Below are positions 1-24,164 of a stretch of 54,829 nucleotides of DNA, piece by piece (within the stretch, counting starts at the first letter, position 1; each line of letters starts with the position of its first letter). The notes beneath the pieces are model-generated. The model saw nothing but the letters and a program-made list of their open reading frames with translations. It was not told where the DNA came from and ran no database searches. The stretch covers positions 1 to 54,829 of the forward strand of contig CAZTQT010000005.1 in the NCBI GenBank assembly GCA_964615625.1, in the 5' to 3' direction. This DNA is from an uncultured Candidatus Saccharibacteria bacterium (GTDB lineage: Bacteria > Patescibacteriota > WWE3 > UBA101185 > UBA10185). The position numbers and the translations under genes were made by a program.

Positions 1-36
1 CTGCGCTTCCTCTTAGTTGCTACGCAACAGGCTTGC
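1..36. repeat. Truncated copy of the structured repeat found in the second tRNA-Val copy
   Basis: CTGCGCTTCC (1-10) is the reverse complement of GGAAGCGCAG (24115-24124). It is followed by a hairpin GTTGC-TAC-GCAAC and AGG, the same layout as CATCGC-GTA-GCGATG-CAGG in the reverse complement of 24091-24124. Cut by the window edge. Confidence 0.6.
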
Positions 37-91
37 GCCACGATATATTAATTTACTTGTAATAGGTATTGAAAATTTGAAAATTTGAAAA

Positions 92-1813
92 TTAAATAAA
101 GTTAAATTTATCTTCGGGGTGTGGCTCAGTTGGTAGAGTGCGCGGTTTGGGACCGTGAGGTCGGCGGTTCGAGTCCGCCCACCCCGACCATTGTAAAAAC
201 CAATGTTCAAAATCCCCCTTATTTGCTCCCACCATAACTAAATCATCCAGTTCGCTAGTTTCTGAAAAGCTTTCTATAATTTCTTGGCTATTTTTTAACA
301 CAATAAATGGTTTTATAAGGTCAACAATGAGTTTTCCATCTAAAATGTAAAAGTTCGCGCCTAAAGTTCTTAATATTTTAGTTTTTTGTTCAGGAGTTCC
401 TTTTTCAAAAGCTAATTTTGCATTCTTAGTAAACTCAAATGTCCTAATAGCTGTATCCATCCAATCTAAAGTATCGACTTTTAATTTTTCTAACTTTGAT
501 TTCAAATCATTAATGGTATCTTCATATGTTTTTCTAGTTAAATCGTATTCTTCAATATCATTTAGACTTCCACGTGTATATAAATTAGTTAGTCTTACTA
601 TCCCTGCCTGTTCCTTTTCCAAAGTATCTTCTAAATTTCTAATTATTAAAGTTTGTTTATCTTGCTCTTTTTCGTTATTTTGTTTAATCCAGGAAATAGC
701 CCAGTTTGAAAATTCCTCGGATATAGTTATTTGTTCTAATAACTTCTTAACTTGCTTATCTATTTCGTTTATAGATAATTGCTTTTGTGTACATTTAACT
801 TTGGTAATATCATGGTTGCACCTAGCATATGAATAAGGCTTTATAGAACCAGAGGCAAGTTTTTTATTTTTAACATAAGGAATATAACTGCTCCCACACT
901 CACCACACTTGATTAAACCTCTATAGGGAACTTCAGTGTATTTACTAGGTCTAGGACGACCTTTATCTCCTAGAATATCCTGGATTACCCAATATTCTTC
1001 CTCTGTTATCATTCTAGGAATACTCTCATGAATTTTATATGTATTTCCAGCCCATTCATGCATACCAAAGTAATAAGGGTCACGTAAAAACTTGTAGAAA
1101 GTGCTTTTAGCTAAAGGACTATTACCAGTTTTCTTAGTTTTTATAGTTCTAAACCCCCATTCATTATTAAGTATATCTAGTATTTGAGATACCGAATAGC
1201 TTCGGGTCATGAACAGGTCTACTGATTTACGTAAAAGATTAAATCTAACCTCGTCTTTCTCAATTGTAGGCTCTCCATAAGGATTATATTTGTTTATATA
1301 ACCAATCTTAGATTTACCAGGCATCCATCCTCTTAAAACCTTGTCTTGTTGCCCCCGTTTCACATCTACACTCAAATCTTTCACATAAACATGAGAACTA
1401 CTAAATTTATTATAAAGACTAGCAATATCACTAGAATTATCTAAATAGATTTGCTGTGGGGTAACAATTGCAGTAATAAAACCTTTGGATAAAAAATCAA
1501 TTAGTATACCTGCCTCTGTAGCGTTTCTTGATAAACGATTTGGATGCCAACAAGCTATAACTTGATAATCACCTTTCTTTATAGATTCAACTAAAGCATT
1601 AAATATAGGCCTTTGAAAAGCGTCCTTAGCAGATTTAGCCTCCTGTAAAATAGACTGTTTTGAATAAAATAGTCCTAACTCATCGCATATATGTAAGGTT
1701 TGCTTAAGCTGGCTTTCCAAAGATGCAACCTGTCTATCTTCTGATTCAGTGCTTTTCCTAGTATAGATAACGGCTTTTAAGCCTTTTAATTGTGCAGAGT
1801 TAAAAATTTCCAT
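92..1813 (-). CDS. Large serine recombinase (resolvase, recombinase, Zn-ribbon and coiled-coil domains)
   Basis: Catalytic YTRKST motif, RLSRN motif, CGECG...C...C zinc ribbon, C-terminal coiled coil. The last ~32 residues (WSGWADSNRRP...) are the antisense reading of tRNA-Pro and its upstream flank. Confidence 0.93.
   Translation of the reverse strand: MEIFNSAQLKGLKAVIYTRKSTESEDRQVASLESQLKQTLHICDELGLFYSKQSILQEAKSAKDAFQRPIFNALVESIKKGDYQVIACWHPNRLSRNATEAGILIDFLSKGFITAIVTPQQIYLDNSSDIASLYNKFSSSHVYVKDLSVDVKRGQQDKVLRGWMPGKSKIGYINKYNPYGEPTIEKDEVRFNLLRKSVDLFMTRSYSVSQILDILNNEWGFRTIKTKKTGNSPLAKSTFYKFLRDPYYFGMHEWAGNTYKIHESIPRMITEEEYWVIQDILGDKGRPRPSKYTEVPYRGLIKCGECGSSYIPYVKNKKLASGSIKPYSYARCNHDITKVKCTQKQLSINEIDKQVKKLLEQITISEEFSNWAISWIKQNNEKEQDKQTLIIRNLEDTLEKEQAGIVRLTNLYTRGSLNDIEEYDLTRKTYEDTINDLKSKLEKLKVDTLDWMDTAIRTFEFTKNAKLAFEKGTPEQKTKILRTLGANFYILDGKLIVDLIKPFIVLKNSQEIIESFSETSELDDLVMVGANKGDFEHWFLQWSGWADSNRRPHGPKPRTLPTEPHPEDKFNFI
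115..190 (+). tRNA. tRNA-Pro(TGG)
   Basis: 76 nt cloverleaf: acceptor CGGGGTG/CACCCCG, anticodon arm CGCGG-TTTGGGA-CCGTG, GGTTCGAGTCC T-arm, encoded CCA. Confidence 0.97.
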
Positions 1814-1834
1814 AGTCTAATAAAATCCTATCGT

Positions 1835-2020
1835 CTATTTAACTTTTTTAGAGCCCTCTTTTTGAAAATATTCTAAGTCGTAGTAGTCTCCTAAACATTC
1901 CTCTACAAGCTCCCTAATTGACCTCTGAAGTCGTGCAGCTTCTACTTTGAGGAGTTTATGCCATTGCGTATCTATACGTATCTGTTTTGTTAGTTTTGTG
2001 TCACTTTGTCGACTTTTCAT
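1835..2020 (-). CDS. Small ribbon-helix-helix-like DNA-binding protein (possible regulator or directionality factor)
   Basis: 61 aa with beta-strand then two helices (TKQIRID-TQWHKLLKVEAA-RSIRELVEECL). GGGGG RBS, directly upstream of the recombinase. Confidence 0.6.
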   Translation of the reverse strand: MKSRQSDTKLTKQIRIDTQWHKLLKVEAARLQRSIRELVEECLGDYYDLEYFQKEGSKKVK

Positions 2021-2079
2021 AAAACCCCCTTCGGGGAGTTCTCTGGTCCGTGTTCCTACTCTTGAGGCTATATATTTAT

Positions 2080-2100
2080 TAGTAACTAGTTACTAGTAAC
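2080..2100. promoter_or_regulatory. Overlapping perfect palindromes (candidate operator)
   Basis: TAGTAACTAGTTACTA (2080-2095, 16 bp) overlaps GTTACTAGTAAC (2089-2100, 12 bp), 60-80 bp upstream of the RHH-like gene. Confidence 0.5.
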
Positions 2101-2306
2101 ATGTAACTTATTACTAAGAACAAGATACATGTTCTAGAACCTTAGCCTCTGTCGTGAGGTATCCGTCCAGGTGTGGTAAAACATCTTCTATGGCTCCCTT
2201 TCGGAGATGTAGGCTACCCACACAGCCTCTGCCAATTTAATAAAAGTTATTTCTAACCTTTGGTAGACAATCAACAAGATTACCTAACAAAAGTTACAAG
2301 TTTAGT

Positions 2307-2474
2307 TCAACTCTCATTACTCTGATTAACTAAATTAGGTTCTTCTAGTAACATCTTGAAAAACAAAAAAACTCTGGTTGCTTTATCTGTAGCCTCTTGA
2401 AAGGTTAATTCGACACCAAAGTTCTTTTTGTATATTTGTATAAATTCTTTAATTGCTTCTTCTGGTAAAACCAT
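2307..2474 (-). CDS. 55-aa helical hypothetical protein (below the ORF-track cutoff)
   Basis: Hand translation: MVLPEEAIKEFIQIYKKNFGVELTFQEATDKATRVFLFFKMLLEEPNLVNQSNES*. Co-oriented with the recombinase module. Confidence 0.7.
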   Translation of the reverse strand: MVLPEEAIKEFIQIYKKNFGVELTFQEATDKATRVFLFFKMLLEEPNLVNQSNES

Positions 2475-2526
2475 AAAAGCACTATATAGAGAGAAAGTTT
2501 TTATGTATGGGTATATAAGGTGACTC

Positions 2527-3174
2527 TTATGACTCTGAAATACCTGCAGTATTTTTAATGGATTCTAATATTTTATTAATTTGGTCTTCTGACACGACAA
2601 ATAATTTATTAGAATTTTCTTCAGATAAGTTAGCCATATGGATTGCTATTTCTTTATTGGACATTCCAGCAAGGTGACAATTTAGTATTTCTATATCACG
2701 TTCTAAAAGATTTTCATCACGAAGTTTATAGCGTTCTTTTGTAAAGGCGAAATGACTTACTTTTATATCAGATACAAAATCCCAAATTTCTTTTATATCC
2801 TTGATGGTGGTATGGTCCCAAATTTGGATATTCATAGTTAAGTCTTTTTCTCCCTCATTACGCCCATAAGAAACAACTGGTAAATCATCTATATCTATTT
2901 GCTGATTAAAGAGTGTGTAATAAACTAAAAAACGTTGCCAGTACGCAGGAAGATTGTAGTTATTCCTCAAACTTACTACGTGTTGTGAAAACTCTTTTGG
3001 CATTTTTCTAGCAATTGAAAACTGCTTTATTTCTTCTCTTTCAGCATAACCTTCGCTTGGGATACTAAATAACTCTCGAAGTTCTTTAATATCTTCAATA
3101 AATTTTGTTGTACTTAAGAGTATTTTTGCACGTTGCAAAGTAGTAGGTTTATTCATTTGGTAAATCTCCTTCAT
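2527..3174 (-). CDS. Hypothetical protein with C-terminal HTH-like region
   Basis: 215 aa. RDIEILNCHLAGMSNKEIA resembles a LuxR/sigma-4-type HTH. Confidence 0.55.
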   Translation of the reverse strand: MKEIYQMNKPTTLQRAKILLSTTKFIEDIKELRELFSIPSEGYAEREEIKQFSIARKMPKEFSQHVVSLRNNYNLPAYWQRFLVYYTLFNQQIDIDDLPVVSYGRNEGEKDLTMNIQIWDHTTIKDIKEIWDFVSDIKVSHFAFTKERYKLRDENLLERDIEILNCHLAGMSNKEIAIHMANLSEENSNKLFVVSEDQINKILESIKNTAGISES

Positions 3175-3721
3175 AAACTAAGGTAGCTTGGTTGAGGTCT
3201 AAACCAACATCTAAAAATTTTTGCTCAAAATATGCTTTTACAACACCTAACTTTTGTCTATGCGTTAATGAATTTTCATCTTCAAAGATATCAAATATGG
3301 AATCTCTACTTACTTGTTTCATTAAAGCACCATTTTTGACTAGAGTGTCATTTAAAACTTTTCTGTTTTTGGCTAAACTTTGAATGGCTTGAAGTTTCAG
3401 TTGAGTAGTAACGGTTTTATCTGTAATAACGTTCCAAAGTTCTTGTTCAAGTTTATAAAAAGTTCTCGAAAACTCAGCAGAATGCCTCTCAATATCAGTT
3501 TCATTTAATTCTGATTTCCAGCCTTCACGTATTTCTTTAATCCAGTTGTAAACAGTTCTTGGAGTAACACCAAAGTGTTCAGATATTTCAGTTGCAATAT
3601 TTATATCCTTCCTAAAAGGATATCTAACTAACAAGTCTTCCAATGATATTAGAGCTTGTTGTTTCTTGAGTTCTGCAATAGAACCCCCTTGTTTTTTTGA
3701 AACCAATGAATCTGTCTTCAT
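3149..3721 (-). CDS. HTH DNA-binding protein
   Basis: 190 aa. IATEISEHFGVTPRTVYNWIKEIR is a classic HTH, followed by a helical region. Confidence 0.65.
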   Translation of the reverse strand: MKTDSLVSKKQGGSIAELKKQQALISLEDLLVRYPFRKDINIATEISEHFGVTPRTVYNWIKEIREGWKSELNETDIERHSAEFSRTFYKLEQELWNVITDKTVTTQLKLQAIQSLAKNRKVLNDTLVKNGALMKQVSRDSIFDIFEDENSLTHRQKLGVVKAYFEQKFLDVGLDLNQATLVYEGDLPNE

Positions 3722-3744
3722 AGACTCATTATAACCGAAGTGAC

Positions 3745-3774
3745 AAAAAGCATAGGGCAGTATTTCTACTGCCC
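3745..3774 (-). terminator. Intrinsic terminator after the SH3b gene
   Basis: Minus strand GGGCAGTA-GAAA-TACTGCCC followed by TATGCTTTTT. Confidence 0.65.
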
Positions 3775-3781
3775 ATATAAC

Positions 3782-4153
3782 TTACTTAAACGTAACAATG
3801 TTTTGACCGACCCAACCTTCGGTATCTTCATACCTAATCTTGTAGTAAGTAATTTTTTGGTCTAGTTCATTTGTTACTTCTTTTTCATCTATAACAAGAA
3901 CATCACTTTTATTTGGTATTTTTGCAATAGGAGTTTCTTTACCAGGCATCTCTGCAGTTGCCCAAACATTAACTCTAGAATCGGATAGTTCATCTAAATC
4001 ATCACCACCAACCATTGCTGGTTTTTCTATGTAAGCTTCTTGTACTACTTCTTTTGTATCTTCTTTCTTAGTATCAGGAGTAGGGGTGACAATTAACAAA
4101 ATAATAAAACCTAAAAGTATAATTCCAATCCACTTTAGTACTTTTTTCAACAA
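3782..4153 (-). CDS. Membrane-anchored SH3b-like domain protein
   Basis: N-terminal TM helix (WIGIILLGFIILLIV), then VNVW...VLVIDE...YYKIRYEDTEGWV. AGGAGG at 4164-4159 favours a TTG start at 4153 or 4150. Confidence 0.65.
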   Translation of the reverse strand: MLKKVLKWIGIILLGFIILLIVTPTPDTKKEDTKEVVQEAYIEKPAMVGGDDLDELSDSRVNVWATAEMPGKETPIAKIPNKSDVLVIDEKEVTNELDQKITYYKIRYEDTEGWVGQNIVTFK

Positions 4154-4155
4154 AA

Positions 4156-4338
4156 TCACCTCCTTAATTTCAATAAATTTGTTTTTACTGTAAAAATCGG
4201 AAGTAAGGAGCTAAATAACGCTATCTCTGGGAGCTCCAGAACTAGTCGTATGGAATTTTTTGTTGTATTTATGCTGAAATATAGCCATTTGAAATTGGGT
4301 TCCAAATATTGAGTTGTGGTGCTTTTATTGCCAAACAT
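4156..4338 (-). CDS. Possible leader ORF, 60 aa
   Basis: GGAAGG RBS 10 nt before the ATG. Its stop abuts the RBS and start of the SH3b gene, and it lies under a structured leader. No recognisable domain. Confidence 0.3.
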   Translation of the reverse strand: MFGNKSTTTQYLEPNFKWLYFSINTTKNSIRLVLELPEIALFSSLLPIFTVKTNLLKLRR

Positions 4339-4339
4339 A

Positions 4340-4453
4340 AAGGGACAACCTTCCGGTATCCACAGCTTGGCAGCAATAGACCCTATGGAAAGGTTGCCCC
4401 TTCATGGGTCCATTGCTTTTTTAAGCATGTTTAAGTAAAGCTGCCAAGCTGTG
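4340..4453 (-). promoter_or_regulatory. Structured leader with alternative anti-RBS pairing
   Basis: Perfect 14-bp IR CACAGCTTGGCAGC (4361-4374) / GCTGCCAAGCTGTG (4440-4453). 4387-4402 is nearly complementary to the RBS region 4340-4354. Confidence 0.55.
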
Positions 4454-4559
4454 TTTAATTTACTTGTTTATTATATCAGGAGTTTTTGATATTCAATACA
4501 AAAGGATATCTTAAAAAGAAATTGTGGTGGTTAATATTAAGAAATATAATAGTCTTAGC

Positions 4560-7500
4560 ATGACTAAACAGAATACACACGATGAAAGCATAGAAGAAAT
4601 TAAAACGCTGTATAAGAAATACTCTGCTGAAGATGTTTTTAGTGCACTTTTTGCGTCATCCCTCTGGCTCCCTAACAGCACTAGTTATATTCAACACCAA
4701 CTATTTGTAGCTACAGCTCTGGCGCTAAAACAATCAGCATATCAAGAAAAGAACAAAATCAATGAATATAATAAGCTTAAGGAATTCCTTGAAAAACTGT
4801 ATGCGCTAACATCCGGATATCCTACCTTTGAAGACTATATACCAACCTTGGATTGGGGAGAAGTCAAATTTCCATATGAAGATGAACAATACAAAATACT
4901 ATATGGCGGAGAATTGGACAATGCGTATGATTATATGACCCTTTTCAAAATACTTTACTGCAATATGGACGGACACTATCAGGAACAAGTGAAACGCAGT
5001 CCTACAAAGGAATTCGAAGGATTTCTAATACTACAAGATAGTTTGCTAAATAAAATAACCTCCCAAAAGAAACTCACTGAAGAGGTACCTGATATTGAAT
5101 TAATGCACACAGAAGTACCTACTGAGAAATTTTGGAAAGAGTGTATCTCTTTTATTAAAACTTCAGTTATTACCGAGCTATTTCCAGAAGAATCATTAGG
5201 TGAATTGACTATAAACATGGGCAATTTGAATGAAAAGAGTTTAACAGCTAAGAATTTCTTAAATAAGGTCGGGGACGGAAATCTTTTAAAACACCTATTT
5301 GTTCAGGTAGGTACTAAATACATACCAATTTTACCAAGAAGGGGACTAGCAGTATTACTTGATAGGTGGTCGAACTATTGTAAAAAGCTAGTATCAGAAG
5401 GGGAAACCTCTATAGAAAGGAACTATCAAAAGGAAATAACCATTGAACTTGCAAAATATCTACAGGGAAGACTAAATAAACGAGAACTATTTCCATTAAT
5501 TAGTGCCCAAAAAGATAATAGCGAGTCTCTAGATGAAGTTTTTGCTGCAGGCATTTCCACAGAAGAAACATTTATTGCTGTGTATGCCCTACCACCCGTA
5601 ACTGATAGGGAAAAATGCAAAGAATTTATTAGAAAATATGAAGCAGCTATTAAAGAATCAATAAATAACTTAAAAAGAACACCAGTAAAATTTGCATGGC
5701 ATTTGGAAAAAACAGGAATGCAAGCTCCCTATAACCATGAAAAAGTAGAAACTCTAATTGTAATACCACAAGCTACTACTAAAATGTTTGGAGTAGAGAG
5801 CTTTAAAAACTTAAATCCTCGAATAATGTTTTTAGAAGAGTTTTTAGCAATATTGGATGAGATAGAAAGTGCAGAAGATTTAGTAAAGTATTGGGACTAC
5901 TGCGATGATTTAGAAAAAAATAGTCAATTTGTCCCTATAACATCAAACCTTGATAAATTTGCATCCTATATAGATTCTCACGGTGTCCTTGTACCTGGGG
6001 CTAATACACCAAATATGATATTTATGGACCTATCTTGGGGAACCAATTATAGATACAAATCTCTTGCCAGCTTTTGGGAACTTTATCCCCAAGAAAGCTG
6101 GTATGGAAACCCTAGAGAGTGGAACGTTAAAAAAGAAAGGGAAAACAGCGTAAGAGTCACATCAAAAACTGAGAATATGCATTCAGCAATCTACCTTACA
6201 CTAGGTGATAAAAGGATTTTCATCTCTGCGCCATTTGAAAAGTTAGGATATAAAGAAGGCTCACTAGCTAACCTCTTTGTAGAGTGTGTGGGCGATTATT
6301 TTGCTAGATTCAGCGATTTACTAGAGCAACATAGTTTCTTCCAAGGTAGCGCAACTGTACATACACTTATATTTCCAAATAACCTTACAACATCAGAAGA
6401 TTTTAAGCACATAGTTCACTTGAAACCAGAACAGGATGAGCTATGGAAGCTAGATACTGGTTGGTTCCAACCAGGACGTTTTGGAATAAGAATTGTTTTT
6501 AACATAGAAAAAGTCCTAGAAATGTTTGAAGACATTTCAAGTAATGATATTGAAATTGAGTTGATTAAAGATATTGTAAATGCAATAAATGACAGAACAA
6601 CCAGAGAGGATATCAAAAAAATAACAGACGCAATAGAAAAATTAAGGGGCAATCCTGCCAGATTCAGAGCCTTTCATGCGGATAAAAATGCGGCATTCCC
6701 AGACTTTGTTAATACAATGACTCCTGGAATTCATGAGCATAAACTTGCACGTAAAAATATATCCTTTATTGCAAAAGAAGCAGGGTTAGAACAGGGGTTG
6801 TATGAAAAGGATGAGGCTAAAAAACTAATAGTAGACCTCAGAGCTAAAATATTAGAGCTTATTGAAAAAGAAGTGCAAAAATTTGATTGGGAAGACTCAA
6901 TTAGATTTCTAATAACTAGGACAGACGCCCTGGTACATAAATACGAAATGGCCAGAGCACATGCAAAAAATTCATTAGAGCAGGAGGTTGAATACAACCC
7001 AGAAGAACGCCATGCGGAAGCGCACAATGAGTTTGTATTAAACCACAAATGCTACAGATACTTGATAGAAAAATTTTTACAATTGAAACCAAAAGGTCCC
7101 AAAAAGATTGACAGTAAGGAATTTAAATATATGGCAAGCCTGGTGGACAAATTAATAGAAGTATATGCTGCCAGTGACCACTTATTTTATGGTATATACC
7201 CTGCAAAACTACGTGTTTCTTATGACTATGTAACTAGTGTTGAGTATCCTCAAGACATTGACGCAATGCAAAAAAGATACGGAGAAGAAGAATCACAAAT
7301 ACAGCTAGGAATAATAGGTAATAATCAAGATAAAGTAGAATCCCCTACACCATTCGAAGATTATCTAGATGACTTAGATAAAGCCTTTGCCAAAGACCTT
7401 GGTTTTTCTATAGCGGAATTACTAAGTATTCTTCAAATACTCTCTCAATGGGCATATTTTCAAGAAAAAGTAGTAGAGAAAGCTTACTATCAAACTAAGA

Positions 7501-8294
7501 AAGAGACCATTCAAAAAACATGTATGAAACACATCCCCAATTTGACTATAGAAAGCTTCAACAAAATAATTGACTTTCTTACTTTGGAACAGAATGATTT
7601 ACTTAAAGTAATTGGAGAAAATGAACTAGCAGCGGACTTACCTGTATGGGAACATGATTTACGGCCCTTCCGATACACAATAAGACCTCTAATAGAAATA
7701 GAAGACGACATTGTTTGGGGACCTTATTCAGCTTATAAAACACGTATTATATGGGAGAATGTGGCAATTTATAATAAGTTACCCGCAAATATGGATACCT
7801 ATGAAACTAAAAAAGTTATTGATAGAGAAAAGAAATTAATAGAAACAGCGTTAGAGATAAAAACCCTTGAAATCATTAAGAGACACACAAAATTTGCTGA
7901 TAGTATAAATTATTCTAGAGGTACCCATCCCCAAGAACTCGGGGACTACGATACTTTAGCCTACATAAAAGGAAAAAATGTACTACTTAATATTGAGTGT
8001 AAAGACCTATTACCTGTGTACAACTTAAAGAAGGCAAGTGAGCTTAAAGAAAAGATATTTGATGATACAAAGCCAAAGAAATATTTAAAAAGAGTAGAAA
8101 ATAGAGAGGAATATTTGAAGAATAATATCAATGCATTTAATGAAAAACTCGAATGGGATATAAAAAAAGACGCAAAAATAATTTCACTGTTTATTACCAG
8201 ACATAACTATTGGTGGACTAAATTTCCTCCTATAAGAACAAATGTTAAGTTTATGAGAATAGACTTACTTGAAGAATATCTAGAAAGCATTTAA
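4560..8294 (+). CDS. Large hypothetical protein with C-terminal PD-(D/E)xK-like nuclease motif; candidate defence protein
   Basis: Long uninterrupted ORF (track starts at 4524; ATG 4560 preferred, 1,244 aa). GDYDTLAYIKGKNVLLNIECKD fits D...ExK. Located in the island beside the R-M pair. Confidence 0.7.
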   Translation: MTKQNTHDESIEEIKTLYKKYSAEDVFSALFASSLWLPNSTSYIQHQLFVATALALKQSAYQEKNKINEYNKLKEFLEKLYALTSGYPTFEDYIPTLDWGEVKFPYEDEQYKILYGGELDNAYDYMTLFKILYCNMDGHYQEQVKRSPTKEFEGFLILQDSLLNKITSQKKLTEEVPDIELMHTEVPTEKFWKECISFIKTSVITELFPEESLGELTINMGNLNEKSLTAKNFLNKVGDGNLLKHLFVQVGTKYIPILPRRGLAVLLDRWSNYCKKLVSEGETSIERNYQKEITIELAKYLQGRLNKRELFPLISAQKDNSESLDEVFAAGISTEETFIAVYALPPVTDREKCKEFIRKYEAAIKESINNLKRTPVKFAWHLEKTGMQAPYNHEKVETLIVIPQATTKMFGVESFKNLNPRIMFLEEFLAILDEIESAEDLVKYWDYCDDLEKNSQFVPITSNLDKFASYIDSHGVLVPGANTPNMIFMDLSWGTNYRYKSLASFWELYPQESWYGNPREWNVKKERENSVRVTSKTENMHSAIYLTLGDKRIFISAPFEKLGYKEGSLANLFVECVGDYFARFSDLLEQHSFFQGSATVHTLIFPNNLTTSEDFKHIVHLKPEQDELWKLDTGWFQPGRFGIRIVFNIEKVLEMFEDISSNDIEIELIKDIVNAINDRTTREDIKKITDAIEKLRGNPARFRAFHADKNAAFPDFVNTMTPGIHEHKLARKNISFIAKEAGLEQGLYEKDEAKKLIVDLRAKILELIEKEVQKFDWEDSIRFLITRTDALVHKYEMARAHAKNSLEQEVEYNPEERHAEAHNEFVLNHKCYRYLIEKFLQLKPKGPKKIDSKEFKYMASLVDKLIEVYAASDHLFYGIYPAKLRVSYDYVTSVEYPQDIDAMQKRYGEEESQIQLGIIGNNQDKVESPTPFEDYLDDLDKAFAKDLGFSIAELLSILQILSQWAYFQEKVVEKAYYQTKKETIQKTCMKHIPNLTIESFNKIIDFLTLEQNDLLKVIGENELAADLPVWEHDLRPFRYTIRPLIEIEDDIVWGPYSAYKTRIIWENVAIYNKLPANMDTYETKKVIDREKKLIETALEIKTLEIIKRHTKFADSINYSRGTHPQELGDYDTLAYIKGKNVLLNIECKDLLPVYNLKKASELKEKIFDDTKPKKYLKRVENREEYLKNNINAFNEKLEWDIKKDAKIISLFITRHNYWWTKFPPIRTNVKFMRIDLLEEYLESI

Positions 8295-8361
8295 AAATGG
8301 ATTCTTTTCAAAGTTTATTGGGGATACTAAGGCTGAGACATTCCGATGGTAATATCTAAAT

Positions 8362-9114
8362 ATGAATCAACATAAAGCATGTGTTTTTTGTAAAAAAGAA
8401 GTAAAACTAACTAAAGAGCATGTACTCCCAAATTGGTTGTGCTCCTTATATCCAACGGATGAAATGGTAATAAATGAGTTCACGGGTGCTAGCCAATCAC
8501 AATGGAATTCTAAAATCTTTCAACACACAGCAAAAGTGGTATGCGAAAGCTGTAATGGTGGCTGGATGTCTAAGCTCGAAAAGGACATAAAGCCGCTTCT
8601 GACCAAAATGCTTAACTTAGAACCATTACTTATTCAAAAAGCTGAACAAGAGCTACTGGCTTTCTGGGCACAAAAAACATTTTTAATGCTGAACAAGGCA
8701 ATACCGAATGGCTTAAAAATAACACAAGATGCATACGATGATGTATACAATTTGAAGAGTTCTTCAAAAAAGATTTTAGTAAACTTGGGATGGAGAGCAA
8801 ATTTTCAGGGTACAAAACAAAATCCAATTGCTAGTTATGAAATAAAACAAATTACATCCATACAAGTAAAAAAAGAGCTTGGAAAACAAGTGGAAGAAGA
8901 AAAAAATAATGGTGGTTTTGTATGGAAAGGAGTATTTGCAATAGGTCCAGTTATATTCGAGTTAATTGGGCACAATATGCCAATAGTACTCAATGTAGAA
9001 ATACCTAAAAACAGCCTAAAAACCATACAACCCTATAAGGAAAATTTAAATTGGCCAAATGAATGGCCCGCAGAAGCTGAGGGTGGCCTAGATAAAATAA
9101 AAACCAGGGGATAA
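8362..9114 (+). CDS. HNH-type endonuclease-like zinc-finger protein
   Basis: CVFC...TKEHVLP...VVCESCN pattern (CxxC, EH, CxxCN). Confidence 0.7.
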   Translation: MNQHKACVFCKKEVKLTKEHVLPNWLCSLYPTDEMVINEFTGASQSQWNSKIFQHTAKVVCESCNGGWMSKLEKDIKPLLTKMLNLEPLLIQKAEQELLAFWAQKTFLMLNKAIPNGLKITQDAYDDVYNLKSSSKKILVNLGWRANFQGTKQNPIASYEIKQITSIQVKKELGKQVEEEKNNGGFVWKGVFAIGPVIFELIGHNMPIVLNVEIPKNSLKTIQPYKENLNWPNEWPAEAEGGLDKIKTRG

Positions 9115-9157
9115 GGTAACTTTATGCTTTGAGATAGAAATAGTACATAACAAAGAA

Positions 9158-10249
9158 CTATTTGATAAATCTAATCTGTAAATTCAGATTAAATCTCAAA
9201 GAGTTGTCGGAATTATATACATTTCCAAACCCATACCTACTTGTAGAAGGAGTATCGAATTTTGTGTTATTGAACAGGTAATTCTCAAACTCATTCACAT
9301 TGTATATGTGATAACAGACCAGGTCACCGTCATCTTTCACTATTATGTAGCCTCCCGATGCCCAATAATCACCTTCCCAAGCTTTAGCAGGGGTCATCCC
9401 TAGTGCAACAGCAACCAGGAAACGTTTAATTTTATATACATACAATTTGTGCGTATCTGTATGAAAATTCAAAGGATTTTCCTGTTCCAAAAGGGCAACT
9501 AAATCCTTAACTGTAGAAGCTCTGCCAGAGTAGTAATAGAGCACCATATTTGAAATTATTTCGGGTAAACGTGAATCTATCATTCCTAAATTAAGGGTGA
9601 ATATCTCGTTACCTGTAGAAACAAACTCAAAATTATAACCTTGTTCGATTAAACTAGCTATTTTGTCTCTTATTCTTAAACTCTCGTCACCAACATCGTA
9701 ACCTACATCAGATGATTCTCTTACACTATGTTTTTCACTATTGAGATTGTATTCAAAATTTGTAGCATTCCCTGCATTAAGTAAAGTAGAAGCACCTCCC
9801 AATTGAGATTTAATACTAAAACCTAAAGTAGGAGTTAGTCCTGTTCTAAAATCATGAATTATTAAATTGATATCTTCTTTCTTATTTGAATTTGCCTTTA
9901 GTTTTTTTACATGAATAGTTTTCAAGAATTCCTCTACGTCTGCTACGCCAAATGTTCTGCCTTTTATAGCATCGCTTTTTATAGTTTTCAAAACCTTTTC
10001 TGCATTCATTTGGAAAGTATCGAAGGGTATTTCACCTAACACTTTTGAATTATCTCCATCAATAATTTTTACTAAACCTTCCCTTCTATACTCCAAATCT
10101 CTTTCTTCCTTCCTTAAAATACTAATAATCGGGTAATAAATGTCTTTAACTCGTTCCAGGTTTTCGTTTGCAGCATATAATTCACCAGCTCCTAATAGCT
10201 TTAAGAAAGTATAAATTTCACTCCATTCGCCTATATTACCTGTCATCAT
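9158..10249 (-). CDS. Type II restriction endonuclease, HpaII family
   Basis: N-terminus GNIGEWSEIYTFLKLL, GFSIKSQLGGASTLLNA, and C-terminal KFDTPSTSRYGFG...LNLQIRF. Overlaps the MTase gene by 14 nt. Confidence 0.85.
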   Translation of the reverse strand: MMTGNIGEWSEIYTFLKLLGAGELYAANENLERVKDIYYPIISILRKEERDLEYRREGLVKIIDGDNSKVLGEIPFDTFQMNAEKVLKTIKSDAIKGRTFGVADVEEFLKTIHVKKLKANSNKKEDINLIIHDFRTGLTPTLGFSIKSQLGGASTLLNAGNATNFEYNLNSEKHSVRESSDVGYDVGDESLRIRDKIASLIEQGYNFEFVSTGNEIFTLNLGMIDSRLPEIISNMVLYYYSGRASTVKDLVALLEQENPLNFHTDTHKLYVYKIKRFLVAVALGMTPAKAWEGDYWASGGYIIVKDDGDLVCYHIYNVNEFENYLFNNTKFDTPSTSRYGFGNVYNSDNSLRFNLNLQIRFIK

Positions 10250-11252
10250 AAAGTTTATCTCCTAAAATTTTTACTATTTCCTCTGCAGTGGCCTGTATTG
10301 CGGGTACAGCAACAGAATTGCCAAATTGTTTATATGCTTGTGCATCAGATACAGGTATCTTGAAAGAATCAGGAAATCCCTGCAACCTTGCCCATTCCCT
10401 AGGAGTCATCTTTCTAATTCCCTCTCTATTAACCTCACCCTTAATATTTGTTATTGGTACAAAATTTTCAAGTCTAGTATCTATAATCAAGTTTCTCTCC
10501 CTGCCCATACCCCCTACAACTACAGCATTAGCAATATCATCTAGGTCTTTTATTTCATAACCAAAACCATTACCTTTACTTTCATGCCTTTTCTTATGTT
10601 CTCTTAGGGACTCTAGATAAACATCAGATAGATAATACTTCACGGATACGGGTTCTTCCTCAACTATATCTTTAATGGAAACATTAATATTTCTTGGTTT
10701 AGGATACTCAAAAGAATCAATCCCCAGGTCCTTCCTAAAACCAATGATAAAAACTCTTTCTCTGTTTTGAGGAACACCATAATCCTTAGCGTTTACTATT
10801 TGGGGTTCTGGCACATAGTAATCCAGGTCTTCTCGCAATACGTTTAGAATTGTTTTTAGAGTCCTGCCTCTGTCATGATTGGTTAATCCTTTTACATTCT
10901 CTAGAAACACTACTTTAGGTCTCTTGTGTTTAATTATTCTAGCTACTTCAAAAAACAAAGTACCTCGAGTGTCTTCAAAACCCCCTCTTTTACCTGCAAT
11001 TGAGAAGGCTTGGCAAGGAAACCCCGCTAGCAAAATTTCATGGTCTGGAACATCTTGTTCCTTTATTTGTCTTATATCACCGAAGGGAGTTTCACCAAAA
11101 TTGGCATGGTAAGTCTGCTGACTATATTTATCCCATTCAGAGGACATTACTGATTCACCACCAACATTCTCAAAAGCCATTCTGATACCACCGATACCAG
11201 CAAAAAGGTCTATTACTCTGAATTTTTTAATGTCATTAACCATTATTTCCAT
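10236..11252 (-). CDS. DNA (cytosine-5) methyltransferase, cognate of the endonuclease
   Basis: DLFAGIGG (motif I), GFPCQ (IV), LENV (VI), QNRER (VIII), QFGNSV (X). Confidence 0.97.
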   Translation of the reverse strand: MEIMVNDIKKFRVIDLFAGIGGIRMAFENVGGESVMSSEWDKYSQQTYHANFGETPFGDIRQIKEQDVPDHEILLAGFPCQAFSIAGKRGGFEDTRGTLFFEVARIIKHKRPKVVFLENVKGLTNHDRGRTLKTILNVLREDLDYYVPEPQIVNAKDYGVPQNRERVFIIGFRKDLGIDSFEYPKPRNINVSIKDIVEEEPVSVKYYLSDVYLESLREHKKRHESKGNGFGYEIKDLDDIANAVVVGGMGRERNLIIDTRLENFVPITNIKGEVNREGIRKMTPREWARLQGFPDSFKIPVSDAQAYKQFGNSVAVPAIQATAEEIVKILGDKLYDDR

Positions 11253-11287
11253 TATACATTGGTCAATAACAATACATAAAGGTATTA

Positions 11288-11365
11288 TTAGACTAAACTA
11301 GGTATAGAAACTGTAGCAGGACAAGTCATAAAATAGTTACAAACTTCGTCCACTATGCTCGACCA
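11288..11365 (-). other. Detached C-terminal coding segment of the recombinase (rejoined on excision)
   Basis: Reads in frame from the shared TGG TCG core as WS-SIVDEVCNYFMTCPATVSIPSLV*. It has no start codon of its own. Confidence 0.6.
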
Positions 11366-11561
11366 ATGAATTTTGGCTACCGATGTAATTGGTAGACAAA
11401 ATTTATTAGTGGGTGGTAAGGAGTTAACCTAGGCTTTAGCCGTGGTTCCACTTTTGATGCTATAGTGCGGAGCACTATGGCTCAAATGCAAGCTTTGCTT
11501 TGTCCGCCCACCCCGACCAATGAATTTTGGCTACCGATGTAATTGGTAGACAAAATTTATT
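11360..11561 (+). repeat. 48-bp perfect direct repeat (11360-11407, 11514-11561) flanking a structured mini-element with an 18-bp tRNA-Pro 3' copy
   Basis: CGACCAATGAATTTTGGCTACCGATGTAATTGGTAGACAAAATTTATT occurs twice and is itself a hairpin. GTCCGCCCACCCCGACCA at 11502-11519 equals 173-190. Confidence 0.95.
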
Positions 11562-11569
11562 TAACAACA

Positions 11570-12019
11570 ATGACAAAGCCAATAAGAAACAATTTGATAA
11601 TCGAATTGCATATTCCAGATCTTAAAGTGGCTGAAAATTTTTATTCCAAGCTAGGCTTCTCAACCAACATATACGATAAACCAAATGAGGAGGAATTGGG
11701 ATATATGACAATGACTCTAGAAAGTACCTTAGGTAATACAATGCTTAATTTTTATGGCGGAGATGATAGAGTTTATAACCAATCCTACTTTAAACAGTTT
11801 CCAAAAGATACAAAAAGAGGATATGCAACTGGAATTACAATACCAGTAGATAACATAGAGAGTATCTACGATCTAGCAAAAACCAATCTTTCAAATTATA
11901 TTGTTCGTGAACTGGAGGAACTTCAGGATCGTAATTTCAGCTGGAAAGATTTCCGCATAGTGGATCCTTTTGGTTTTTATATTAAATTTACTGAACTTGT
12001 AGATTGGGGACAAGATTAA
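11570..12019 (+). CDS. VOC/glyoxalase-family protein
   Basis: ELHIPDLKVAENFYSKLGF and WKDFRIVDPFGF motifs. ATG 11570 preferred over the track start 11543. Confidence 0.8.
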   Translation: MTKPIRNNLIIELHIPDLKVAENFYSKLGFSTNIYDKPNEEELGYMTMTLESTLGNTMLNFYGGDDRVYNQSYFKQFPKDTKRGYATGITIPVDNIESIYDLAKTNLSNYIVRELEELQDRNFSWKDFRIVDPFGFYIKFTELVDWGQD

Positions 12020-12117
12020 GTTTATTCAAATACTTGGATATTAATAAACTTAGATAGTAAAATTTAAATATAATTAATTTTTAACGGCTTATGTGTTCAG
12101 CCGCATGAGGGGTAAAA

Positions 12118-13287
12118 ATGGAGAATAATCAAACTTCATCAAATATTAGCAACATAGTAGAATCTAACAACCAATTTGCTTTAGATTATTATTTTCAATT
12201 AAAAAATAAGGAAAGTGGAAACGTTTTTTTATCTCCTTTCAGTATTTATAGTATTTTAGCTATGGCTTATGAAGGAGCAAGAGGGCAGACAGCTGAGGAA
12301 ATGAGATCATTACTGCACCTTCCAACAGATGATAGTTTAAGAAGATCTGAGTATGCAACAACAGTTGAAGGTTTAAACAACGATGATAAAAAATATAAAA
12401 TCAGTATTGCTAACGCACTTTGGGCTCAACAAGATTATAAGTTTCTAGATGAATATCTTAATATAGTAGAAAATTTTTATGGTGGAAAAGCCAATAACCT
12501 TGATTTCAAAAAAGACCCGGAAGGCTCTAGAACAACTATAAATAACTGGATAGAAGAACAAACAAACGACAAAATCAAGGATTTAATACCTTTTGGGATA
12601 ATTGATGGATCAACAAGACTTATACTTACAAACGCAATTTATTTTAAAGGTGAATGGGTAAGACAATTCAATGCAGAAGAAACAAGAAATGAAAATTTTA
12701 GAATAAATGCAAACGAATCTATTGATGTCCAAATGATGAGACGTGTTGATGAGGATGCTAAATTTAATTACACCGAAAACGATGATTTACAGATTCTTGA
12801 AATGCCTTATTCAGGCGAAGAACTATCTATGCTAATCCTTCTTCCGAAAAATGATGATCTAGAAACATTAGAAAATTTACTCAGTACAAAAAAACTATCA
12901 GAGTGGAAACAAAATCTAGAAAACCAGCATGTTGTGGTATCTATTCCAAAATTCAAATTTGAGACTAAATACTTTATGGCTAAAGATCTTAAAGCAATGG
13001 GAGTACCTACAGCGTTTGATTGGCCAGGAGCTAATTTTTCTGGAATGGACGGTGCGGAGGAGTTGTTTATCGGAGAGGTTATTCACCAAGCACTTGTTGA
13101 GGTAACTGAAGAAGGAACCGAAGCGGCAGCGGCAACTACAGTAGTTTCATTGAAGGGATCTATGAGAAGTAATAATACCCATACAATCCCTGTTTTCCGT
13201 GCGAATCATCCCTTTATATTTCTAATTCAAGAAAAAACTAATGGGAATATTTTATTTATGGGAAGGGTTGTTAACCCAACCCTATAA
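12118..13287 (+). CDS. Serpin-family protease inhibitor
   Basis: NVFLSPFSI, NAIYFKGEW, hinge EEGTEAAAAT, FRANHPFIFLI, ILFMGRV. GAGGGG RBS. Confidence 0.95.
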   Translation: MENNQTSSNISNIVESNNQFALDYYFQLKNKESGNVFLSPFSIYSILAMAYEGARGQTAEEMRSLLHLPTDDSLRRSEYATTVEGLNNDDKKYKISIANALWAQQDYKFLDEYLNIVENFYGGKANNLDFKKDPEGSRTTINNWIEEQTNDKIKDLIPFGIIDGSTRLILTNAIYFKGEWVRQFNAEETRNENFRINANESIDVQMMRRVDEDAKFNYTENDDLQILEMPYSGEELSMLILLPKNDDLETLENLLSTKKLSEWKQNLENQHVVVSIPKFKFETKYFMAKDLKAMGVPTAFDWPGANFSGMDGAEELFIGEVIHQALVEVTEEGTEAAAATTVVSLKGSMRSNNTHTIPVFRANHPFIFLIQEKTNGNILFMGRVVNPTL

Positions 13288-13359
13288 AATCTATTAGGAA
13301 AACATTTGGTACGTCAATTACGACTCCTTAGTAAAATTTAATTCTAAACTGTGAAACAA

Positions 13360-14277
13360 TCAGTCGTAGAAACACTCACCATATATTTCTTCAGGTACTT
13401 GATTTTCTTCCATCAAGTCACAACGCGGATAATCCTGCCCAGAATAAATTTCAACCCATTTACCATCTACTAATTTAGCAATTACAAAGTGACCTGTACG
13501 CCTATAATTAACATTTATTAAGGCGTAATCATCAACTTTTTTACTAACAGATATAGTTGCGTCTTTGATATCTAAATCTTTCAGGTATTGGGATTGTTCA
13601 GTGTAATTGTTATCGTATGACTCAGTACATGTAAAAGAAAAACTGTTGTAAAACGGCTCTGTTTCTGAAAAAGCTACACAATCAGGATTTGCTCTAAAAA
13701 CACATTTAGAGATGCCTTTTTCATACGCTTGGATATAATCATAAAGATGTGGATCTTCCAATGACTTGGATGAGTTTTTGTAGTTTAAGACATAATCATA
13801 AGACTCCATTATTTCCTTTATATCTGTTGATAATGTAGATACTATTTTGCTAAATAAGGTATCATCGGAAGAAGAAAAGTTATTACAATCATAATTTTTA
13901 TAAACTAACCCTGTTTCCTTATCATTCATAATGTTTAAACCATCGTCCCCAACCCACCAAACAGAAGCCTCGGTATCCAACAAAACGTCACCTTGGTAAA
14001 TATTAGAAACATTGTTAAAACTCTTCTCTATATCAGCACCAAATTCATATTTTTCAGTGAAAATAGAGGTAGGTGATTTTACAGACGTAGACGAATCACC
14101 ATATTTTATATTTTCTATCCCACCAGAATCACTCAAAGATTTTTTATTTTGAAAACAACAGTACACCAGTGTTGCAAAAAACATTAACAAAGAAATTGCT
14201 AAAAGTATTAAAAGAGCCAAATTAAGCTTGTTTTGATTTTTAACACTATTTTCCCGTTTTTTATCTGTTTTATTCAT
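13360..14277 (-). CDS. Membrane-anchored Cys-containing surface protein, unknown function
   Basis: N-terminal TM helix and several Cys in the extracytoplasmic part. Confidence 0.7.
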   Translation of the reverse strand: MNKTDKKRENSVKNQNKLNLALLILLAISLLMFFATLVYCCFQNKKSLSDSGGIENIKYGDSSTSVKSPTSIFTEKYEFGADIEKSFNNVSNIYQGDVLLDTEASVWWVGDDGLNIMNDKETGLVYKNYDCNNFSSSDDTLFSKIVSTLSTDIKEIMESYDYVLNYKNSSKSLEDPHLYDYIQAYEKGISKCVFRANPDCVAFSETEPFYNSFSFTCTESYDNNYTEQSQYLKDLDIKDATISVSKKVDDYALINVNYRRTGHFVIAKLVDGKWVEIYSGQDYPRCDLMEENQVPEEIYGECFYD

Positions 14278-14464
14278 GTTTTACCCTTTAAATAACTTAA
14301 AAAAACCTGCTTTTATAGTAACATATTTGTTATTAAGAAAACCCTGTATAACAATGGAAGATTGGATGGGATACATTCAAAAAGAAAAAATAAAGTCCTC
14401 CCAACCACAGTAGAATTGTCATCTTGTAAGCTAGGTGTCTCTCTGATAATCTATACCTCAAGAT

Positions 14465-15960: not shown

Positions 15961-16155
15961 TTTGCTGGTGGGCGAGAGAGGACTCGGTCACAAGTCCACG
16001 TATCTCTACGTCACTCCGTTCCTAGAGCTTCGTGGCTCGCGACCCCCTCTCGCTCGCCTTCGGCTCACTGCGAATTATTCTCGTCCTCTCTCATAAGCGA
16101 AAAATATATCGGCATAAAGCCGACACATTTTTGCTGGTGGGCGAGAGAGGACTCG
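15961..16155 (-). repeat. 26-bp direct repeat of the tRNA-Leu 3' end enclosing a 143-bp structured mini-element
   Basis: TTTGCTGGTGGGCGAGAGAGGACTCG at 15961-15986 and 16130-16155. Confidence 0.92.
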
Positions 16156-23902: not shown

Positions 23903-24164
23903 AGGCTGTTAGCTCCTGTTGGAGCGAAGCGACAACCGATCCTAACCAACCTAAAGAATATAGAAATATATTTAAATGAGCCAGTGGCGAATAAGTAGTA
24001 AGAAAATAAAACAAGCAAAAGTACAGAAGAGTTAGGAGAGTCGGTTAGAGCGCCACATTGACATTGTGGAGGTCATTGGTTCGCAAAATTCCTGCATCGC
24101 TACGCGATGTAAAAGGAAGCGCAGCGAGTGAAACGAGCGAGCAAGCTTTTATTACCGCCCACCA
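23903..24164 (+). pseudogene. Second tRNA-Val copy in three pieces, split by 126-nt and 70-nt insertions
   Basis: 23904-23915 matches 23775-23786 at 11/12, 24042-24083 matches 23790-23831 at 41/42, and 24154-24164 matches 23840-23850 at 11/11. Confidence 0.8.

Follow-up and report, generated by a model that had tools for sequence, protein, structure and literature searches.

The tRNA-Pro(TGG) gene of the 54,829-nt stretch analysed here (hereafter the window; contig CAZTQT010000005.1, from an uncultured Candidatus Saccharibacteria bacterium placed in WWE3 by GTDB) is followed by an 11.2-kb genomic island and, on the far side of this island, by a second exact copy of its own 3' end. This arrangement raises the question of what kind of element carries the second copy and whether this element was present before the island arrived. 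A preliminary description of the locus had proposed that a small structured element was already attached to the tRNA gene at that time. We show here that the 154-bp unit at 11366-11519 is one copy of a discrete family of 'tRNA-trailer cassettes' that contain no open reading frame (ORF) and are found behind tRNA-Pro genes in WWE3/Patescibacteria (type B), and that it was in place before the island. The best reading of the data, to which we assign a probability of about one half, is that the cassette specifies a trailer RNA co-transcribed with tRNA-Pro, similar to the RtT RNA of enterobacteria, and that it also spreads as a DNA cassette. Three points go beyond the preliminary description: the inner hairpin of the element belongs to a multi-copy module, the family has a wide distribution, and the RtT units of E. 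coli have a similar layout.

The last 18 nt of tRNA-Pro (GTCCGCCCACCCCGACCA, positions 59-76), which span the last two T-loop bases, the 3' strand of the T-stem, the 3' strand of the acceptor stem, the discriminator base and CCA, are found again without any change at 11502-11519 (the replica). A 42-nt trailer hairpin precedes the cassette body and returns behind the replica, where its second copy lies just 5' of the next ORF (ATG at 11570). In the window as it stands, the exact repeat covers only 48 nt (11360-11407 = 11514-11561) because the island terminates in CGACCA; the repeat extends to 64 nt at 89% identity, and a degenerate copy of the tRNA-Pro end, matching at 12 of 18 positions, occupies 11348-11365. 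When 191-11365 is removed in silico, the repeat grows to 60 nt with a spacing of 154 bp, and the unit found behind tRNA-Pro is then 11366-11519, followed by the second hairpin copy. The recurrence of the 18-nt tRNA end and the 42-nt hairpin at 11502-11561, as claimed in the preliminary description, is therefore exact, and all the coordinates hold. A chance origin of an exact repeat of 48-60 nt is excluded, as there is no chance expectation for it. No ORF of 60 amino acids or more is present within the cassette body (11408-11501).

The in silico deletion corresponds to a genome state that exists. Among public sequencing runs, 20 hold the stretch: X1-X4 contain 98% of the sampled words, X5-X19 56-65% and X20 53%, and the word coverage of X5-X20 corresponds approximately to the part of the window that lies right of the island. 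In the island-free run X16, the 60-nt unit has a depth of 60.5 against 25.5-32.3 in its four unique neighbours, and is therefore present in two copies; moreover, the loose end of one X16 contig links the tRNA-Pro body straight to the 60-nt unit. A 366-nt contig of X26 runs from the upstream sequence through tRNA-Pro, hairpin and body up to 11529, and the repeat is crossed by contigs of X25 (254 nt, 11434-11686) and X18 (940 nt, 11463-12100). The same unitigs were recovered in k=31 Logan graphs from four independent runs. Finally, the syntenic locus L006, on an independent Joint Genome Institute (JGI) contig, has no island, and its hairpin, body and replica are identical to those of the window (154/154), with 88.6% identity in the coding flank, 86% in the upstream spacer and 73/76 in tRNA-Pro. 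In the island-free genomes the trailer hairpin abuts the CCA of tRNA-Pro; the joint made in silico thus exists in nature, and the small unit is older than the island. Two of the checks suggested in the preliminary description, comparison with island-free relatives and exclusion of an assembly duplication, thus give clear answers: L006, X16 and X26 join tRNA-Pro directly to the 154-bp unit, and a mis-assembly is excluded by independent contigs and by depth.

Relatives of the cassette were sought with inner-hairpin patterns in one scan of genome contigs and one scan of metagenome contigs, which yielded two and four loci, respectively, six in all (L001-L006); both patterns contain the module described below and leave module-less relatives unsampled. 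Overall, five distinct type B sequences were obtained, that of the window and four others from other contigs. Behind tRNA-Pro(TGG), type B is found in the window, with the same sequence in L006, and in L002. At tRNA-Pro(GGG) it is found in L001, with the same sequence in L005, and in L003; L004 has a GGG-type replica, and its tRNA lies off the contig. All five sequences show a common order, which consists of CCA, a hairpin of like shape and differing sequence, AGTGGGT..., a variable hairpin, one or two modules of the form ACTTTTGATGCTATAGTGCG-N-AGCACTATGGCTCAAATGCAAG, CTTTGCTTT, and a replica that begins at position 59. The replica agrees with the resident tRNA, reading CCGCC for TGG, CCTGT for GGG and CCGCCT in L002, with a one-base exception in L006, where the tRNA now has AGCGG/CCGCT and the replica still has CCGCC. 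Every type B copy has the inner boundary of its replica at the same place in the T-loop, position 59, and every copy of a second subfamily (type A, see below) has it at position 56, whereas the outer boundary of the repeat varies from 18 to 70 nt. Behind the replica, relatives show another hairpin or some other flank, and in L002, L001, L003 and L006 the repeat measures only 18-26 nt. The preliminary description would have had to be abandoned if the unit were the eroded end of a former large island; the same unit boundaries in five distinct sequences and behind two tRNA-Pro isoacceptors contradict this.

The neighbours of the cassette copies are housekeeping genes, and no recombinase or reverse transcriptase was found near any copy. 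Two module patterns searched in viral contigs gave no match, so that nothing points to the body being a phage attP site. ARAGORN detected only three true tRNAs in the window, 11408-11519 gave no match to the tRNA clan of Rfam at E up to 10, and at the same limit no credible Rfam family was obtained for 11200-11700. Literature searches for tRNA-trailing repeats in the candidate phyla radiation (CPR) gave nothing.

The inner hairpin of the body belongs to a dispersed 43-nt module. Over 11463-11486, the contig depths add up to 328 in X1, where unique sequence has 39-42, and to 199 in X16, where it has 29; the module has at least five different left or right flanks. These values suggest about 7-8 module copies per genome, contig depths also summing other organisms. 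The copies are 95-100% identical in L001-L006, their loops are GGA, GAA or GTA, with one-base insertions giving GAGA or GGAA, and the module pattern had 0 matches in 100 shuffles. The module is also found outside the tRNA-Pro setting. At L002 1463-1726, tRNA-Arg(TCT) is preceded by its own truncated copy, and a 69-nt body with the module in antisense orientation lies between the two; the direct repeat that flanks this body measures 70 nt and consists of 49 nt of upstream sequence and tRNA positions 1-21. Loose ends GAAGGCGGGACGGTTCTTATCCTCTGAGCT in X1, X5, X16 and X18 suggest that a near-identical tRNA-Arg arrangement exists in or near the genome of the window.

The cassette body is predicted to fold together with the replica. 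GGGTGG (11411-11416) pairs in this fold with CCACCC (11508-11513), and a 15-bp stem with a GGA loop (-18.2 kcal/mol) is formed at 11453-11486; the 94-bp insert with precisely this stem and this pairing, as put forward in the preliminary description, is thus borne out by the predicted structure. The complete closing helix, 11409-11416 with 11508-11514, joins G(T)GGGTGG to CCACCCC and corresponds to acceptor positions 2-7 with 66-71, plus a pair at T-stem position 65. It is 94% paired in the five sequences, by means of G·U pairs where the tRNA differs. In the replica, 11508-11514 would therefore form the 3' strand of the closing helix, with 11515-11519 (GACCA) predicted to be single-stranded. 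At the level of the model, the closing helix is shown to be an acceptor-stem mimic with a free GACCA tail.

A consensus structure of 54 pairs was derived from the alignment of the five sequences; since the prediction was made on the sense strand, it is biased towards G·U. In this structure 94.4% of the cells are paired, and for 10 pairs both partners have changed. Pairing or compensation values as high as these were obtained in only 1-6 of 500 shuffles, and slid partners pair at 34-49%. Covariation is located in the trailer hairpin (6 pairs) and in the variable hairpin (3 pairs). On the tRNA-sense strand, 30 of the non-Watson-Crick cells are G·U and 3 are A·C, and folding of this strand gains 4-6 kcal/mol over folding of its complement (Table 1). 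The fold of the whole 196-nt unit is uninformative, as pairing of the two identical hairpins dominates it. Within this predicted structure, the excess of G·U over A·C and the compensatory changes suggest that selection acts on the fold of a single strand, that of the tRNA sense.

Table 1. Features of the tRNA-Pro locus in the window, with predicted folding energies of either strand (kcal/mol).
Feature	Position	Strand	Basis	Sense fold	Antisense fold
tRNA-Pro(TGG), CCA encoded	115..190	+	ARAGORN; Rfam tRNA model, 65.8 bits		
11.2-kb island (context only, outside the cassette)	191..11365		Pfam matches; missing from L006 and X5-X20 contigs		
Right-end arm of the island, attP-derived, ending in GTCCACTATGCTCGACCA	11336..11365	+	same arm, AGTTACAAACATCGCTCACTATAGTCGGCCA, in L004		
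Trailer hairpin, copy 1 (18 pairs; A-tract and T-tract flanks)	11366..11407	+	fold; 6 compensatory pairs across homologues	-16.1 (z = -7.1)	-10.5
Cassette body, 94 bp	11408..11501	+	fold with replica	-45.4 with replica (z = -3.6)	-39.0 with replica
Body: 5' strand of closing helix, G(T)GGGTGG	11409..11416				
Body: sub-hairpin 1	11426..11447				
43-nt hairpin module, dispersed repeat	11450..11492	+	contig depth; copies in L001-L006	-18.2	-14.6
Body: long hairpin	11453..11486				
Body: small hairpin	11488..11498				
18-nt replica of tRNA-Pro positions 59-76	11502..11519	+	exact copy		
Trailer hairpin, copy 2, identical to copy 1	11520..11561	+	exact repeat		

Just downstream of the cassette, the window contains a full-length serpin gene (12118-13287; Pfam Serpin, E = 1e-120); the segment formed by this gene and its neighbours (11562-14370) has no counterpart at the syntenic position of L006.

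The island lies exactly between the CCA of tRNA-Pro and the cassette hairpin. It carries a large serine recombinase gene next to tRNA-Pro, as well as an HpaII-type restriction-modification pair, with Pfam matches to Resolvase, Recombinase, Zn_ribbon_recom, RE_HpaII and DNA_methylase. Its right end, ...AGTTACAAACTTCGTCCACTATGCTCGACCA, has a counterpart in L004 (...AGTTACAAACATCGCTCACTATAGTCGGCCA), where the end of a related serine-recombinase island is found at the same CCA/hairpin junction, again directly before a homologous hairpin and cassette. This shared arm indicates that the look-alike of the tRNA end at 11348-11365 is the island's own arm and not a decayed host copy, and the CCA/hairpin junction is shown to be the attachment site, or target, of the island. 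Since both islands lie directly before a type B hairpin, the hairpin may form half of the attachment site. The arm is kept over ~30 nt (window 11336-11365; L004 1160-1190) in two islands at two tRNA-Pro loci, one of TGG type in the window and one with a GGG-type replica in L004. We also considered the large serine recombinase of the island as a mobiliser of the cassette and rejected it, both junctions of the cassette being attB-like and the right arm of the island being a distinct conserved sequence.

The comparison of orthologous tRNA loci shows how variable their cassette content is. Between the lineages of the window and of L006, the cassette has no difference in 154 positions, with flanks that are 11-14% different and with 3/76 changes in tRNA-Pro and 1/83 in tRNA-Leu; by our own arithmetic, the chance of zero changes in the cassette is ~1e-7 at the neutral rate and ~0.02 at a tRNA-like rate. 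Lineages of the window type and of the L006 type co-occur in sample X16. The tRNA-Leu(TAG) gene of the window is followed by a type A cassette (15987-16129, with a 26-nt repeat), and the orthologous tRNA-Leu(TAG) has no cassette in L006, L009, L011, L012 and L013. The tRNA-Pro(TGG) gene of L011 carries a type A cassette in place of type B. The tRNA-Pro(GGG) loci of L003 and L005 are orthologous, and the methyltransferase next to them shows no more than 52% amino acid identity; at L005 a type A cassette is accompanied by a type B cassette with two modules, at L003 there is a single type B cassette with a different variable hairpin, and ~97% identity is retained between them in the module and the 3' part. 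An orphan type A cassette at L009 3100-3300, which ends in a tRNA-Pro 3' replica and a partial trailer hairpin, is located between two protein-coding genes, with no tRNA-Pro detected by ARAGORN within 10 kb or on the 20.8-kb locus. A clean empty tRNA-Pro site was not observed within the species, and the depth in X16 fits two repeat copies in all cells. Because cassette content differs between orthologous tRNA loci, we are dealing with a discrete cassette and not with an eroded island end, and these data indicate a unit that is gained, lost, swapped and probably exchanged.

Type A differs from type B in the strand that it mimics. The tRNA-Leu(TAG) region, 15961-16155 on the minus strand, consists of a hairpin, a 143-bp GC-rich body and a 26-nt replica that starts at T-loop position 56; the body opens with GAGAGAGGAC, the antisense of GTCCTCTCTC in that tRNA. 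The closing helix of type A involves the T-stem strand and not the acceptor strand, and its antisense piece is a perfect complement of the 3' strand. The preliminary description had assigned the same layout to the tRNA-Pro and tRNA-Leu loci. This stands for the architecture, that is, hairpin, antisense piece, body and sense replica from T-loop to CCA; however, the tRNA-Leu cassette belongs to the other subfamily, with its own replica start (56) and its T-stem closing helix.

Further fragments were noted around these tRNA genes. A GC-rich block 5' of tRNA-Pro (CTGCGCTTCCTCTTAGTTGCTACGCAACAGGCTTGCGCCACG..., window 1-66; L006 3890-3954) is identical over 65 aligned positions, and the next 50 nt beyond it are only ~68% identical between the window and L006. 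In L001 a related upstream block lies between two copies of the tRNA 5' end (TCGTCGGGGTGT), and the block looks like a 5'-side type of cassette. L006 also contains partial tRNA-Pro copies at 3686-3755 and 4241-4298, starting in the D-loop and inside the anticodon, respectively. In both of them the T-arm is swapped for a hairpin of equal length, TCCCGCAGAATGCGGGA, and the second continues into the first 14 nt of the trailer hairpin. Modules of a broken tRNA-Val region of the window (23912-24053) are found twice upstream of tRNA-Pro in L006 (3361-3439 and 3564-3703) with 82-90% identity, which indicates that tRNA-associated modules move between tRNA loci.

As to transcription, contigs assembled from RNA libraries fit co-transcription of the cassette with tRNA-Pro. 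A metatranscriptome contig of 211 nt (X27, depth 4) matches L006 4097-4307 at 100% and runs from the last part of the hairpin through body and replica to 82 nt beyond them. The kilobase after this contig, including most of the next ORF (4490-4945), has depth 0, as have the ORFs on both flanks. Two other contigs, from X26 (tRNA-Pro and cassette) and X25 (cassette and downstream sequence), come from libraries that are labelled RNA-Seq with a metagenomic source. The contigs of X26 and X27 have a depth of 4-5 and carry no strand or end information. A simple terminator scan did not call the trailer hairpin.

According to the reading that we prefer, the cassette would be transcribed as the distal part of the tRNA-Pro precursor, and the mimic of the tRNA end would let tRNA maturation (a ribonuclease P-type 5' cut and trimming of the CCA end) free a structured RNA of ~111-154 nt, in parallel with the release reported for the rtT RNA of the E. 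coli tyrT operon. Recombination through the replica would allow the cassette, as DNA, to duplicate, to be swapped and to pass from one tRNA locus or co-resident lineage to another. The replica would also recreate an attachment-site-like sequence behind the tRNA, and together with the hairpin it may constitute a landing place. The wobble asymmetry and the RtT precedent favour the RNA part of this proposal. Several observations weigh on the other side. The module copy of L002 that is antisense to and upstream of tRNA-Arg cannot be explained by a tRNA-driven transcript, no mobilising enzyme was found near any copy, and the Rfam RtT model does not match the tRNA-Pro cassette. The RNA evidence consists of three strandless contigs of low depth, two of them from the 'metagenomic RNA-Seq' libraries and possibly DNA; the raw RNA reads of X31 yielded nothing. 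The X27 contig extends past the CCA of the replica, which implies that at least some transcripts are uncut there, and the hairpin that precedes the body is terminator-like (A-tract, stem, T-tract) and would limit read-through. Finally, the comparison includes only five distinct sequences, all of them found via the module and with their structure predicted on the sense strand, and the long module helix is invariant, so that it provides no covariation evidence either way.

The main rival is a selfish, non-autonomous mini-element of the type of a cis-mobilizable element (CIME) or a miniature inverted-repeat transposable element (MITE), which would be moved by a recombinase acting in trans at the T-loop/3' end; the folds would then matter at the DNA level, transcription would be incidental and the RNA would have no function. 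This explanation, which is not exclusive of the RNA reading, is possible, although we consider it rather unlikely as a full account. A fixed inner boundary (59 in type B, 56 in type A) with a variable outer one is the pattern of site-specific integration into tRNA genes, and the ssrA islands of Dehalococcoides share the T-loop boundary, a 20-bp repeat and gene-less segments flanked by att sites (PMC3146451). Tandem cassettes in L001/L005, presence/absence differences and perfect identity across diverged genomes agree with it as well, and the opposite-orientation module 5' of tRNA-Arg and the fixed T-loop boundaries favour it over the RNA reading. The wobble asymmetry and the compensatory changes argue the other way, even though a single-stranded DNA intermediate could look alike. 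Moreover, no recombinase is linked to any copy, no cassette copy was found in viral contigs, the neighbouring serine recombinase would not be usable in the usual way, both ends appearing to be attB-like and not hybrid attL/attR, and a double-stranded circle of 154 bp would be a poor substrate for recombination.

The unit could also descend from a tandem duplicate of tRNA-Pro that died, in which the part from the D-arm to T-loop position 58 was replaced by hairpin modules and only the 5' acceptor strand and the 3' 18 nt remain. In agreement with such an origin, the 5' strand of the closing helix, G(T)GGGTG, resembles tRNA-Pro positions 2-7 (GGGGTG) with one extra T, a tandem gene duplication would generate a 60-nt repeat of tRNA end and hairpin, and broken tRNAs exist in the surroundings, such as the pseudo-tRNA-Pro pieces of L006 and the 5' piece of tRNA-Arg (nt 1-21) followed by the module in L002. 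However, the D-arm, the anticodon arm and the 5' strand of the T-arm are unrecognisable, and ARAGORN and the Rfam tRNA search are both negative at 11408-11519. Decay is unlikely to keep boundaries, compensation and ~95% module identity beside a neighbouring protein that is 52% identical, and the antisense piece of type A perfectly complements the 3' strand instead of copying the 5' context of the tRNA. We therefore judge this origin improbable. Even less probability, close to none, is left for the eroded right end of a former large island or for an assembly duplication. It is true that tRNA genes gather stacked island remnants, that the unit sits beside a live island and that the right arm of the island and the right end of the cassette have CTTYGTCC...CGACCA in common. 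Yet the 94-bp body recurs with unchanged ends where the island is missing, behind another isoacceptor and in other lineages, which random erosion would not produce. Both copies are bridged by assemblies and contigs of independent origin, and the depth corresponds to two copies. These observations rule out both explanations.

A broader interpretation would unite type A, type B and the enterobacterial RtT in one old and still active class of mobile non-coding RNA genes. Such genes would borrow the promoter of the host tRNA, carry both strands of the tRNA end to form a minihelix for processing enzymes, and use the CCA-ended mimic as a handle for copying and re-insertion behind tRNA genes. A reverse transcriptase or recombinase that recognises CCA would be one possible agent, by analogy with the Neurospora retroplasmids, and the 18-nt replica and the 154/154 identity (beside a coding neighbour at 88.6%) would then be footprints of copying. 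Neurospora retroplasmids fuse cDNAs to tRNA ends, and retroviral primer-binding sites copy the span of tRNA positions 59-76. We advance this interpretation as a doubtful one.

The tiny genomes of these Patescibacteria retain several folded, gene-less cassettes each, which are conserved almost like their tRNAs. In annotation, the replicas account for spurious 'extra att sites' and for contig breaks beside tRNA genes in metagenome-assembled genomes. If processed RNAs are produced, the cassettes represent an RNA family, hitherto undescribed, that is linked to the maturation of tRNAs in a large radiation of uncultured bacteria, and they would provide a comparative framework for the 40-year-old puzzle of RtT in E. 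coli. If they are mobile DNA, they represent a very small kind of tRNA-targeted element with an arm tailored to its target, one that also influences where genomic islands land, as seen for the islands of the window and of L004 at the tRNA/cassette junction.

Among known systems, RtT is the closest in layout. We checked the DNA of E. coli K-12, in which units of ~178 bp lie behind the tRNA, single or in tandem (one unit at tyrT, three at tyrV). Each unit opens with the antisense of the tRNA 3' strand (GGGGAAGGAT; GGGGAAGG behind tyrT) and continues with a GC-rich multi-hairpin body; the unit closes with 19 nt, AATCCTTCCCCCACCACCA, that repeat the end of tRNA-Tyr exactly and in sense orientation, from the T-loop to CCA. 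The Rfam RtT consensus (RF00391) has the corresponding closing helix followed by a free ...CCACCA. The rtT RNA is reportedly involved in the processing of the tyrT transcript and possibly in the stringent response (bioRxiv 10.1101/2024.07.17.603846). The tRNA-Pro cassette and its four homologues likewise lie directly behind a tRNA and carry a sense replica of its 3' end, and in the predicted structure the antisense piece and the replica form a closing helix with a free CCA tail. Unlike RtT, however, the closing helix of the tRNA-Pro cassette is made from the acceptor strand, its replica starts at position 59, a 42-nt hairpin stands in front of it and the dispersed 43-nt module lies inside it; the hosts are enterobacteria for RtT and Patescibacteria for type B. 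As a control, the four E. coli units scored 133-138 bits with the RtT model, for a gathering score of 45 bits. With the same model, the tRNA-Pro cassette gave no match at E up to 10 in 11200-11700, and no region of the whole window reached the gathering score. The tRNA-Leu cassette gave a full-length match below this threshold (19.2 bits, E = 0.2, model positions 1-130), with the leader TTTTTC-C-TATG, GGA-GAGAA and the replica as common sequence. Other type A copies (L005, L009) had no RtT match, which leaves homology between type A and RtT unproven. Type B is thus RtT-like in its layout and is not a member of the Rfam RtT family.

The ssrA islands of Dehalococcoides, with their CcrB-like large serine recombinases, insert with a T-loop boundary and 20-bp direct repeats of the 3' end, and they contain stacked att-bounded 'cis-mobilizable' segments, kilobases long and gene-carrying, some of which lack integration genes (PMC3146451). 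In these islands, as in the 11-kb island of the window, a recombinase gene on the reverse strand adjoins the tRNA or tRNA-like gene. The cassette resembles a CIME in that direct repeats of the 3' part of the target bound it, with the inner boundary at a fixed loop position. Unlike the Dehalococcoides segments, it measures 154 bp, has no ORF, has its fold on one strand and begins with a stretch antisense to its target. Both of its ends look attB-like, as in an empty site, and recombination between two sites of this kind is not to be expected from a large serine recombinase. MITEs, repetitive extragenic palindromic (REP) sequences and bacterial interspersed mosaic elements (BIMEs), Rickettsia palindromic elements and Correia elements are ~100-150 bp long, gene-less, hairpin-rich and multi-copy, and they show presence/absence differences. 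Elements of the MITE/REP type have terminal inverted repeats and short fixed target duplications, or occupy many kinds of sites. In contrast to such repeats, the cassettes are located at the ends of tRNA genes, with a long and variable tRNA repeat and a closing-helix arm that is tailored to the target.

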